Positions 553 through 9,962 of a stretch of DNA of 25,200 nt are shown here, one piece after another. The stretch is from the IMG/VR virus record IMGVR_UViG_3300032277_000071, positions 1 through 25,200 of that record. One strand, 5' to 3'. Numbering within the stretch: the first letter of the stretch is position 1; each line of letters begins with the position of its first letter. A program made the translations under genes and the position numbers. The notes under the pieces were generated by a model. The model searched no databases. It saw only the letters and a list, made by a program, of their open reading frames with translations, and had not been told where the DNA came from. Origin of the DNA: a virus (taxonomy: Duplodnaviria > Caudoviricetes).

Positions 553-948
553 ATGGCAAAAAGAACACAGCGCAAAAAATTAGTAGATAAACTAGATAAG
601 ATTTTTAGTGTATATATAAGACGTAGATACGCTAAGAATGATATAGCTGAATGTTTTACTTGTGGCAAAAAAGACCATTGGAAGAAGCTACAAAACGGAC
701 ATTTTCAAAGCCGTAAACACTACTCTACTAGGTGGCACGAAAAAAATTGCCAAGTTCAATGTGCAGGGTGTAATGTGTTTAGGTATGGGGAACAGTATAA
801 ATTTTCTAAGAACTTAGATAATACTTATTATGATGGTTTAGCAGAAGAATTACACATAGAAGCTAATAAAACTGTTAAGCTAGATAATACAGATTTAGAA
901 ATGTTAATAGAAAAATACGAAATGTTAATTAAAGAACTAGATACTTAA
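553..948 (+). CDS. ninG: NinG/Rap-family recombination endonuclease (HNH-like, zinc-binding)
   Basis: LDKIFSVYIRRR, CFTCG, NGHFQSR, TRWHEKNCQVQCAGCN match the NinG pattern. Confidence 0.85.
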   Translation: MAKRTQRKKLVDKLDKIFSVYIRRRYAKNDIAECFTCGKKDHWKKLQNGHFQSRKHYSTRWHEKNCQVQCAGCNVFRYGEQYKFSKNLDNTYYDGLAEELHIEANKTVKLDNTDLEMLIEKYEMLIKELDT

Positions 949-950
949 TG

Positions 951-958
951 TATATTTG
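951..958 (+). promoter_or_regulatory. Bacteroidota -7 promoter element (TATATTTG) driving a putative small RNA
   Basis: Exact TAnnTTTG right after the ninG stop. Only about 70 non-coding nt lie between it and a terminator. Confidence 0.6.
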
Positions 959-962
959 TAAA

Positions 963-1030
963 GTATTGTTTTTGTTTTAATATCGGTTGTAATAACCAGA
1001 AGAAGCCACCTTTAAAAGGGTGGTTTTTTT
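963..1030 (+). ncRNA. Putative antisense small RNA (U-rich 5' seed, small hairpin, terminator hairpin)
   Basis: Bounded by promoter 951-958 and terminator 1003-1030, with no ORF. 963-983 is complementary to leaders at 1086-1104, 2206-2215, 3082-3092, 5772-5788, 6419-6428. The 5' end is inferred. Confidence 0.55.
1003..1030 (+). terminator. Rho-independent terminator
   Basis: GCCACCTT-TAAA-AGGGTGGT stem-loop followed by a T run. Confidence 0.85.
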
Positions 1031-1072
1031 GTTTATAATGTTTTTATATTTTTTTTATTGAATTATTTTTTT

Positions 1073-1080
1073 TATATTTG
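1073..1080 (+). promoter_or_regulatory. Early promoter -7 element (TATATTTG)
   Basis: Exact TAnnTTTG, downstream of a terminator and 27 nt before ATG 1108. Confidence 0.7.
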
Positions 1081-1107
1081 CCATAATATTAATTAAAACA
1101 ATACATT

Positions 1108-1309: not shown

Positions 1310-1444
1310 ATGACTTATTCAGAAGATGTAAACAGGGCAGCATCAGTAGATACAATAGACTTTTTAAACGCTCGTATAGATGCCTTACAGAAACGAGTAG
1401 AATTTTTAGAAGCATTAAACGAAATTAACAACAAAAATAAATAA
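1310..1444 (+). CDS. Small coiled-coil protein, 44 aa (MTYSEDVNRAASVDTIDFLNARIDALQKRVEFLEALNEINNKNK), absent from ORF track
   Basis: Exactly fills the gap between 1308 and 1446 with 1-nt spacers; heptad pattern. Confidence 0.7.
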   Translation: MTYSEDVNRAASVDTIDFLNARIDALQKRVEFLEALNEINNKNK

Positions 1445-1838: not shown

Positions 1839-1862
1839 TAACAATTAAAAACAAGTAAAATT

Positions 1863-2196: not shown

Positions 2197-2204
2197 TACC
2201 TTTA
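2197..2204 (+). promoter_or_regulatory. Possible -7 promoter element (TACCTTTA, one mismatch)
   Basis: TAnnTTT(A) immediately after the terminator, 17 nt before ATG 2222. Confidence 0.4.
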
Positions 2205-2221
2205 CAAAACAATACAAAACA

Positions 2222-3103
2222 ATGAAAGAGATAACAGAAGAACAGACTACACATAATATGCTTATGGAGTTGATAGCAGAAGAATGCACTATCGACACAT
2301 CAGAGATTATGGAGTACCCTCCAACAGCATTAAGTTTAGGGGAGAAAACTATACAGGCAAAAGGTGGAGATATTACAATGCCTATTCCAATTGGAACTTA
2401 TGGTAATTTCAGCTTCGTACAAGCACCCCCAAAGAGCAAGAAAACGTTTTTTGTTAGTTTACTAGCATCAGTTTATTTAAGTGGTGGTAATAACTTTGGA
2501 GGCAAAATTAAAGGTCATAGAGATGGTAGGTGTTTAATGCACTTTGATACAGAGCAAGGACACTGGCACGCACAACGAGTTTTTAAGCGTGTGCAGGATA
2601 TGAGTAACACTAAAGAGGTGGGTTGTTACCATACTTATGCACTTAGAACAATAGGATATAAAGAACGGTTACAATTTATAGAACACTGTTTAGAGCAAAA
2701 TAAAGGTAAAAACGGTTTAGTTATTATAGATGGTATTGCTGATTTAGTTAGTGACGTTAATAATTTAGAAGAATCAAATTTATGTGTTCAGAAAATAATG
2801 CAACTATCTGCAAAATACGATTGCCACATAGTAACGGTAATACATAGTAATTACGGAAGTGACAAGCCAACTGGACACTTAGGTAGCTTCTTAGAGAAAA
2901 AAACAGAAAACCAAATACAGCTTGAAGTAAATACAGTAAATAAAGAATGGATAACAGTAAGCTGCAAACGTTCCAGAGGTTATGCTTTTGAAACGTTTAG
3001 CTTTAGCATTAATGAGTTCGGATTGCCTTTTGTAGTAGGTGAAATATATGACCCATTAGAATACTTTGTACCTAGAACACTAACAAAAACAACGACACAA
3101 TGA
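2222..3103 (+). CDS. RecA-fold P-loop ATPase, RepA/AAA_25-like putative replicative helicase
   Basis: Variant Walker A APPKSKKT, HFDTEQG, Walker B LVIIDG, VIH...KPTGHLGS motif. Confidence 0.75.
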   Translation: MKEITEEQTTHNMLMELIAEECTIDTSEIMEYPPTALSLGEKTIQAKGGDITMPIPIGTYGNFSFVQAPPKSKKTFFVSLLASVYLSGGNNFGGKIKGHRDGRCLMHFDTEQGHWHAQRVFKRVQDMSNTKEVGCYHTYALRTIGYKERLQFIEHCLEQNKGKNGLVIIDGIADLVSDVNNLEESNLCVQKIMQLSAKYDCHIVTVIHSNYGSDKPTGHLGSFLEKKTENQIQLEVNTVNKEWITVSCKRSRGYAFETFSFSINEFGLPFVVGEIYDPLEYFVPRTLTKTTTQ

Positions 3104-3954: not shown

Positions 3955-4446
3955 ATGACACCAATTTTAGAACTAGCTTATAAAAAGCATAGCGACTGGA
4001 ATAACATAGTAAAGAGTTTCGGCTGCAACCCCTCAATGAGTGAGGACGTTGTGCAGGAGATGTACATACAGCTTGATGCTGATGTAAAAAAAGGTTTAGA
4101 CCTTTACTATAAAGACCAGATTAACCACTATTATTGCTATAAAGTTCTAAGAGGTATTTACACAAATTTATATAAGTCAAGCCTAAGACAAAAGAAAGTT
4201 TATTTAGAAGATATAAACGAACTAAAAGAAATACAAGAAAGCGGTATAGATGAGAAAGAATGGGCAAAGCAGCGAGATAAAATAGATAGTATTTTAAACG
4301 AGATGTACTGGTATGATAAGAAGATATTTGAAATAGTTTCTAAGGGTGTAAGCGTTGCGGAGCTAAGCAGGAACACAAAAATAAGTTATTATTCGCTTTA
4401 CAATACATATACAAACGCAAAGAAACATATAAAAAATAAGTTATGA
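3955..4446 (+). CDS. ECF-like RNA polymerase sigma factor
   Basis: 163 aa. Region-2-like SEDVVQEMYIQL; region-4-like HTH GVSVAELSRNTKISYYSLYNTY. Confidence 0.7.
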   Translation: MTPILELAYKKHSDWNNIVKSFGCNPSMSEDVVQEMYIQLDADVKKGLDLYYKDQINHYYCYKVLRGIYTNLYKSSLRQKKVYLEDINELKEIQESGIDEKEWAKQRDKIDSILNEMYWYDKKIFEIVSKGVSVAELSRNTKISYYSLYNTYTNAKKHIKNKL

Positions 4447-5735: not shown

Positions 5736-5768
5736 TTTGTTTATAACTAAAATAAAGTTGTATATTGC
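5736..5768 (+). promoter_or_regulatory. Early promoter: -33 TTTG (5736-5739) and -7 TATATTGC (5761-5768)
   Basis: 21-nt spacing fits the Bacteroidota consensus. The downstream leader resembles that of promoter 1073. Confidence 0.6.
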
Positions 5769-5779
5769 GGTATATTAAT

Positions 5780-5978
5780 AAAACAAACATTATGAATTAT
5801 CCAAAGACGATTAGAGTAGCATATTTTAAAGATGGTGTTGATAAAAGAGACAATTTCAACGAATGGTATGTTATACAAGAAAAAGTAAACAATCAGATTG
5901 AAGAGAATACATTTTATGAAAGCCTTAATCACGAAGCTAACGTTAATATAGATATTTTTTAAAAACAAACATTATGAA
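5780..5978 (+). repeat. 17-bp direct repeat AAAACAAACATTATGAA at 5780-5796 and 5962-5978
   Basis: Identical copies covering the start codons of two consecutive genes. Confidence 0.85.
5792..5962 (+). CDS. Hypothetical protein, 56 aa
   Basis: ATG 5792 lies downstream of the promoter and within the repeated leader. TTG 5765 falls inside the promoter itself. Confidence 0.6.
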   Translation: MNYPKTIRVAYFKDGVDKRDNFNEWYVIQEKVNNQIEENTFYESLNHEANVNIDIF

Positions 5979-6162: not shown

Positions 6163-6437
6163 TGACTTTACTACAAAAACAGTCGTATAATCTCTGGTTT
6201 AATCACATAGCTGATTTAGTTATGGAATGGAGTAAACAAAAACCTGCAAATACAGATTTAAAAAATATGGTGCAGGGAATGACAGAGATAGGGCAATATG
6301 TAAACGCTTTAACTGTTGAAAACAGCGTACTAACAAAACGTATAGTACTTATACGAGAAGAAAAAAACAAAACGCTTATAGACTTAAATAAGCAAATAGA
6401 AGATTTAGAAAACAAATTAAAACAATACAAAATATGA
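6162..6437 (+). CDS. Hypothetical coiled-coil protein
   Basis: TAATG overlap with upstream gene; C-terminal heptads. Confidence 0.7.
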   Translation: MTLLQKQSYNLWFNHIADLVMEWSKQKPANTDLKNMVQGMTEIGQYVNALTVENSVLTKRIVLIREEKNKTLIDLNKQIEDLENKLKQYKI

Positions 6438-9440: not shown

Positions 9441-9962
9441 ATGAAATTAGAAACAATAAAAGAAGCAGTAAACAAAAAATTCAATTTAGATATCTCTTTA
9501 GATACAAGGCAAAGAAATTACTCTTATGCTAAAAAGGTATTTAGTAAACTAGCCTATGAAAGCGGCGCTACATTTAAAGAAGTGGGAGATATAATAAAAA
9601 AAAGTCACTGTAATATATTGCACCACGTTAATAGTATAAACGTAATAACTCTTGAGGATAAAAAGAAACACGACCAAATAATAAGAGAGCTAAACTTAGT
9701 ATTATCTAAACCGTTCTTTAACTCAGAACAAGACAAAATAAAAAAAGAAATAAAGAAAAAACAAACAAAAAAAACTATAAAAGAAATACAAGACGTTCTA
9801 GACGTTTTAAGTGGCTGGGATATAGAAACAGTAACAGAATTTAAACAAACACGACTAGACCCATTTAACGCATTAATAAAGACTAGAGTAAAGCGTAAGA
9901 CTATAAAGGAAGTAAAAGGTGCTATACTAAACAAGAAAGTTAAAAACCCTGTACTATGCTAA
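9441..9962 (+). CDS. HTH protein resembling the DnaA C-terminal (domain IV) DNA-binding domain
   Basis: IKEAVNKKFNLDI..TRQRNYSYAK...TFKEVGDIIKKSHCNILH parallels the DnaA-IV pattern (SLxxIGxxFGxDHTTVLH). Confidence 0.6.
   Translation: MKLETIKEAVNKKFNLDISLDTRQRNYSYAKKVFSKLAYESGATFKEVGDIIKKSHCNILHHVNSINVITLEDKKKHDQIIRELNLVLSKPFFNSEQDKIKKEIKKKQTKKTIKEIQDVLDVLSGWDIETVTEFKQTRLDPFNALIKTRVKRKTIKEVKGAILNKKVKNPVLC

Follow-up and report, generated by a model that had tools for sequence, protein, structure and literature searches.

A small RNA unit that follows the ninG gene in a family of tailed phages and a set of short tags lying just before the start codons of these phages' early genes are strongly co-varying in sequence, and their complementarity is not a product of chance. 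The predicted small RNA (sRNA), 68 nt long, more likely than not acts in trans by pairing with the early-gene tags; it would block translation of these genes and in this way serve as a brake in lytic growth.

The window (the whole 25,200-nt stretch of viral DNA that was analysed) covers the greater part of a tailed phage of 30-32 kb whose genes all lie on one strand, in the order holin, ninG, sRNA unit, early block, terminase and structural genes. The early block comprises AAA_25 ATPase, PAPS-reductase-like, sigma-like, exonuclease and methylase genes. Two labels given to early genes by the first-pass annotation need amending: the "helicase" at ATG 2222 owes that name to a Pfam AAA_25 match, and the "SSB" at ATG 1863 has no match to any named family. 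Among cultured phages, Nonlabens phage P12024L has the nearest terminase (55%). This is likely a marine phage with a host among the Flavobacteria, although the host assignment is indirect; a 97% match in one flavobacterial metagenome-assembled genome (MAG) is weak evidence for it. The promoter boxes of the window agree with the Bacteroidota consensus, TAnnTTTG at -12 to -5 (PMC9723704).

Several other features of these genomes deserve mention in their own right. The window carries C5 and N6/N4 methylases, and relatives carry genes for a TET/JBP oxygenase and a TET-associated glycosyltransferase (L329:2483-3352 and 1108-1848, L333:9703-10446), which suggests DNA hypermodification. The protein encoded at 9441-9962, possibly an initiator or regulator, has homologues in all six whole records, one of them with a weak match to the DnaA C-terminal HTH. 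The gap between holin and ninG (386-552) contains small hairpins and a TAACTTTG box at 421 that is also present in L004, L022, L102, L033 and L126; AT-rich short repeats lie upstream of ninG in relatives L102, L033, L126, L143 and L059. This gap is possibly an origin, a genome end or a second non-coding RNA.

The coordinates of the sRNA unit and of its putative targets are collected in Table 1.

Table 1. The predicted sRNA unit and the early-gene tags in the window
Feature	Positions	Strand	Basis
ninG/Rap endonuclease gene	553..948	+	PHROG 5034, Pfam NinG; predicted sRNA unit lies 3' of its stop throughout the family
-7 box TATATTTG of predicted sRNA promoter, host sigma-A type	951..958	+	box variants in 157 distinct loci; Bacteroidota consensus
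Predicted 68-nt sRNA	963..1030	+	start placed at +5 after the box
U/G-rich seed with 969-977 open in the predicted fold	963..983	+	folding, shuffle and window-rank tests
Optional middle hairpin	985..997	+	stem-loops in 26/77 loci
Intrinsic terminator	999..1030	+	stem 999-1030, fold z -3.82
-7 box of first early promoter	1073..1080	+	sequence check, box analysis
Tag before ATG 1108	1086..1104	+	7+10 bp, -13.1 kcal/mol
Weak 8-base tag before ATG 1446	1430..1437	+	sequence match
Weak 8-base tag before ATG 1863	1847..1854	+	sequence match
Variant box TACCTTTA and 10-base tag before AAA_25 ATPase gene (ATG 2222)	2197..2215	+	behind terminator 2169-2190
11-base tag before PAPS-reductase-like gene (ATG 3100)	3082..3092	+	inside upstream ORF, without box
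Variant box TATATTGC and tag before ATG 5792	5761..5788	+	sequence match
Weak 8-base tag before ATG 5974	5961..5968	+	sequence match
10-base tag before ATG 6434	6419..6428	+	inside upstream ORF, without box, -13.1 kcal/mol

The positions and letters quoted in the first-pass annotation all agree with the sequence, and the layout that it described after ninG, a promoter box followed by about 70 non-coding nt and a terminator, is present, the terminator being real. Its description of 963-983 as unpaired holds for the central part: 969-977 is open at a probability of at least 0.9, but for roughly half of the time 963-968 is base-paired to 978-983. The small hairpin behind this segment was absent from its description. 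The 5' end is placed at 963, and the length thus at 68 nt, because box and ATG stand exactly 4 nt apart in 19 of the 21 genes that look leaderless and because, in 50 loci of the window's clade, positions +5 to +20 are identical and positions +1 to +4 come in 11 forms. Pairing with leaders along the unit climbs from +2 to +5 after the box. The predicted sRNA has a single-stranded 5' seed and a terminator behind a sigma-A promoter (over 77 loci, the first 20 nt have a median probability of 0.72 of being unpaired). It contains no ATG and is non-coding; of 77 loci, one has a minus-strand ORF preceded by the mirrored seed. The window has one such unit. A point against the proposed sRNA is that a TTG at -33 is absent from the window; it is present in 28 of 77 loci. 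The terminator would end ninG transcripts as well.

The unit is a constant companion of ninG. In all, 319 IMG/VR loci were collected, several of them on a shared contig, and 229, including the window, had ninG with 200 nt after it. A box with a terminator 52-89 nt or less beyond it is found after ninG in 227 of these 229; on visual inspection the two loci missed by the unit finder share this layout, with a variant of the box. The 227 collapse to 157 distinct loci. Applied to both strands of six whole records, the unit finder returned 11 matches, 1-3 per genome, six of which are the ninG-following unit. The terminator occurs as 72 distinct sequences in 77 loci with its pairing maintained, and the middle hairpin as 22 stem-loop sequences in 26 of these 77, likewise with pairing maintained and often with AAC in the loop. 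In the close relatives L082-L087 and L089 the matched ninG frame ends about 50 nt short of the usual place, which may reflect a different ninG allele or a frameshift; the sRNA unit is intact there.

Within the window, AAAACAATAC occurs on the plus strand solely at 1095, 2206 and 6419, and its reverse complement solely at 963; this exact search bears out the first-pass claim that the three exact copies all stand just before an ATG. Among the 224 ten-mers with at least three plus-strand copies, only AAAACAATAC and its one-base shift always end 0-10 nt ahead of a gene start. Of the 25 early leaders, 6 match the seed by at least 9 bases (shuffled mean, 1.74), a number that 9 of 2000 dinucleotide-shuffled seeds reach; the seed windows also rank first among 8393 plus-strand 22-mers (step 3). 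The tag duplexes are short and AU-rich, at -6 to -13 kcal/mol, and three late leaders of the window score -10.2 to -10.5 kcal/mol with the seed. Two further elements of the first-pass annotation survive in part. The promoters that it placed at 2197 and 5761 do have boxes, but these are variants of the consensus; the 8-base tags at 1430, 1847 and 5961 lie where it put them but are weak alone, since matches of 8 bases also occur in 3 of 17 late leaders. In relatives the match between the leader of the AAA_25 ATPase gene and the seed of the same genome extends to as many as 17 bases, L182 having such a 17-base match; in L137 a different seed matches eight leaders, one of them by 15 bases. A generic host leader does not account for the tag: just 3 of 30 copies of the ten-mer in a flavobacterial MAG have an ATG within 2-8 nt, one of these apparently on the phage contig itself.

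Seed and tags change together, in the test that the first-pass annotation had asked for. The comparison set comprises 140 loci with at least 8 early leaders and 38 seed types, with long seeds trimmed to 24 nt. Early leaders match the seed of their own genome better than foreign seeds, with z=8.4 by longest match and 7.1 by energy over the 38 types; the signal remains at z=7.9 when the first gene is left out and at 7.2 (longest match) and 5.5 (energy) for leaders more than 1 kb away. Late leaders, as a control, give z of -0.9 and -0.8 (33 types), and windows inside genes give 2.3 and 1.6, so this control is not fully flat. Foreign seeds also average 7.4, against 8.7 for the own seed, and the own seed ranks first in 9 of 38 types, some ranking 29-33, partly because many types are related and because seeds were trimmed to 24 nt. 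Internal mismatches are G-U compatible in 27 of 88 cases with own seeds versus 15.1 of 64.3 with foreign ones. A leader motif found blind has its mirror image in the own unit for 16 of 29 types, against 3.5 expected; 9 types yielded no motif, and in the window itself the blind motif missed by one base.

Common descent is accounted for by a tree of six genes from 77 loci, on which pairs sharing no common branch were contrasted by swapping seeds. For early leaders, 21 of 24 such pairs favour the own seed and 2 go against it (p 7e-5); for distal leaders, the contrast by length is 20 for and 2 against in 23 pairs, and that by energy is 16 versus 7, which is not significant (p 0.09). The in-gene and late controls are even. 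The swap contrast was used in place of yes/no motif traits because, among four of the nine such traits placed on the tree, one was without concordance (3.2 versus 2.1 pairs) and three had one independent pair each. The seed is complementary to several unlinked translation-initiation regions and co-varies with them. In L242 the first early leader fits the L223/L224 seed type more closely than that of its own unit, a possible sign of recombination or of co-evolution that has fallen behind.

Tags mark a class of genes. First genes behind host-type boxes are tagged in 109 of 244 cases (12% for foreign seeds), translationally coupled genes in 62 of 1254, genes with the late motif in 1 of 18, and leaderless genes in none of 21. 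Genes more than 9 kb downstream are as enriched as early genes, which would make them a failed late control at first sight; in the genomes inspected, however, they include small-gene cassettes near terL, at least one of them behind a host-type box. Seed-tagged cassettes of this kind lie between terL and the structural genes in L328:16899-17565 (G020) and in G001, the latter behind a host-type box; it therefore seems to be the type of promoter, and not location, that defines the tagged class. In many loci of the second large clade the ATPase gene is leaderless and untagged. Late genes, in the window (12162, 19609, 21253, 23525) and in relatives, are preceded by an A-rich block, about 13 nt, TTATATA, 4-5 nt and the ATG. 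This upstream motif is probably a late promoter for a phage sigma factor, its leaders being very short, and the weakly sigma-like gene at 3955-4446 is a candidate for its late-promoter factor.

The proposed mechanism is readily stated. Host polymerase would transcribe the sRNA from 963, and ninG transcripts ending at the same terminator would possibly top it up. Acting in trans, the sRNA would pair with the tags, which lie 1-15 bases ahead of the starts of early genes driven by host promoters. Translation initiation in Flavobacterium depends on adenines at -3, -6, -12 and -13 (PMC6847099), and it is these adenines that the duplex would mask. Translationally coupled downstream genes would be lost along with the first gene of the operon; late genes, with their other upstream motif and no tag, would escape. 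Accumulating over time, the sRNA would act as a timer that caps the early and replication proteins, although its delayed action is an assumption, since its promoter and the early promoters are of the same type.

Three roles were put forward in the first-pass annotation: carrier state, superinfection immunity and early shut-off. Early shut-off is favoured among them because neither integrase (PF00589) nor HTH_3 repressor (PF01381) was found in any of 21 relatives at least 92% complete, in a search by these two families, which serine recombinases, plasmid prophages and other repressor folds would escape; the other two roles are without direct support. A Pfam scan of 113 proteins from two complete records found no repressor family, and a genome scan found no evident prophage, only 6 short MAG contigs of 1-8 kb from unrelated taxa. 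For these reasons a lytic-cycle brake would be the best role, ahead of lysogenic immunity. The main rival, rather unlikely, keeps the same RNA and the same repression and makes its principal job the exclusion of later phages with the same tag, or an unintegrated carrier state. The 38 seed types in one phage family recall the heteroimmunity of P1 and P7 through c4 (PMC12197685), no HTH_3 repressor was found in the 21 relatives, and a host-type promoter would remain on in a carrier cell. The missing integrase and the meagre yield of the genome scan weigh against it, as do the six whole records, in which no immunity region is seen and nearly all genes lie on one strand; moreover, seed drift requires no selection for escape. 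Kin exclusion could also coexist with a lytic brake.

The tag might instead be recognised as DNA by a phage protein, such as the DnaA-C-like product of 9441-9962, in which case the copy at 963 would be an inverted extra site. The presence of homologues of this protein in all six whole records would suit such a reading, as would the enrichment of tags behind promoters (118 of 262 tags, versus 330 of 1602 genes). The signal, however, is bound to the mRNA strand and to the start codon: z is 10.3 for the mRNA strand between -25 and +3, 0.0-0.5 further upstream of -25, 3.9 just inside genes (+3 to +31) and 2.7 on the opposite strand, this last value being what a DNA site has in its favour. A DNA operator fits poorly with that strand preference, with the 144 of 262 tags that have no box within 55 nt and with the sliding of tag registers in 33 of 60 genomes. 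The inverted copy, besides, starts at the predicted start site of an otherwise empty promoter-terminator unit. The operator is accordingly judged improbable.

Still less probable is an activating sRNA, whose pairing with the tag would recruit ribosomes and replace the Shine-Dalgarno pairing that Bacteroidota ribosomes lack. Tags do sit at roughly the Shine-Dalgarno distance and pick out genes that require a new initiation event, and the conserved AAC loop could bind a partner. Seed matches mostly end 2-6 nt before the ATG, but many reach or enter it and would cover the adenines that promote initiation; the middle hairpin is absent from 51 of 77 loci, and FopS and GibS, as described, repress (PMC11697453).

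The first-pass annotation also offered pairing solely in cis, between 963-983 and 1086-1104 of read-through transcripts, which would silence the first early gene when late transcription continues. The fold of 960-1130 does contain this helix, and the first-gene swap contrast is positive. A strong terminator separates the two segments, though, and co-variation persists without the first gene; because leaders more than 1 kb off, behind another terminator and promoter, also co-vary, cis pairing alone is disfavoured and very unlikely. Complementarity arising by chance between A-rich leaders and the U-rich flank of a terminator, for which the low complexity of the sequence and the high average of foreign seeds might speak, is scarcely credible, being largely refuted by the shuffles, the own-versus-foreign and blind-motif tests, the tree-independent pairs, the flat late controls and the rarity of ATG-proximal ten-mers in the MAG.

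The predicted trans-acting repressor sRNA has counterparts in known systems. No Rfam model, the C4-type models included, matches the window at gathering score, and a search relaxed to E=10 gave GibS at 16 of 115 bits and BTnc231 at 19.3 of 80.4, with no FopS or C4 among 17 weak, terminator-driven matches. By analogy, the predicted sRNA is one that works like FopS and P1 c4 while matching no Rfam family. The CI RNA of phage P4, akin to c4, is a phage-encoded RNA that acts on its own mRNA. FopS and GibS of Bacteroides have a host sigma-A promoter, a single-stranded 5' seed and an intrinsic terminator, and their pairing partners are the initiation regions with which several operons begin; in vitro, FopS-10 blocks translation, and one phage is reported to have a FopS copy (PMC11697453). 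RbpB binding and translational repression are further marks of this kind of RNA. The predicted phage sRNA resembles them in promoter, seed and terminator and in its likely targeting of operon-first genes. They are described, in contrast, as host RNAs for host glycan genes, with 12-15 paralogues and one conserved seed, whereas the phage has one copy, directed at its own early class, with a seed that diverges along with its targets into 38 types. The c4 RNA of P1 and P7 is likewise phage-encoded and self-controlling, acting on its own mRNA near the ribosome-binding site, and changes in its sequence make control phage-specific (PMC12197685). It differs, in that account, in addressing one antirepressor transcript within the protein-repressor circuit of a temperate phage through loop-borne sites; the phage sRNA would address many leaders through a seed at its 5' end, and neither an integrase nor an HTH_3 repressor was found with it. 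Other phage-encoded trans sRNAs are lambda PreS, which acts on host dnaN, VP882 VpdS, which acts through Hfq (PMC12197685), and sRNA1/2 of PAK_P3, whose targets are unproven (PMC4933390); they include late-accumulating RNAs in a virulent phage, and none is described in these sources as addressing a whole early class through co-evolving tags. A literature search, mostly of open papers, found no description of a ninG-linked sRNA element.

A unit of the same shape, box, seed and terminator, lies right after the holin gene in the cultured Nonlabens phages P12024L (L150:9826-9895) and P12024S (L340, about 10174). In P12024L, 3 of 58 leaders match the seed by at least 9 bases, a count equalled by 214 of 1000 shuffles, and 2 match by at least 11 bases, equalled by 24 of 1000; the three best matches all lie behind host-type boxes. 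This unit is a candidate only, because the matches are weak against shuffles. Lillamyvirus has two box-terminator units with one 9-base match each, which are not convincing.

How early genes are shut off in phages without a repressor or a polymerase of their own, and how lytic phages exclude their kin, are open questions. If the present proposal is true, a single RNA with lineage-specific tags would answer both, simply and testably, and would exemplify antisense control adapted to initiation free of Shine-Dalgarno pairing. The cultured phages P12024L and P12024S, with their unit of the same shape, make a first test practical, and the many natural seed-tag pairs are possible orthogonal expression switches for Bacteroidota. 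The broadest version of the proposal is possible, if tentative: that in lytic Bacteroidota phages an RNA address code, in which one sRNA reads the private tag that each lineage bears on its early genes, takes the place of a protein repressor; such a code would time early shut-off, silence superinfecting kin that bear the same tag, and diversify by mutual escape.
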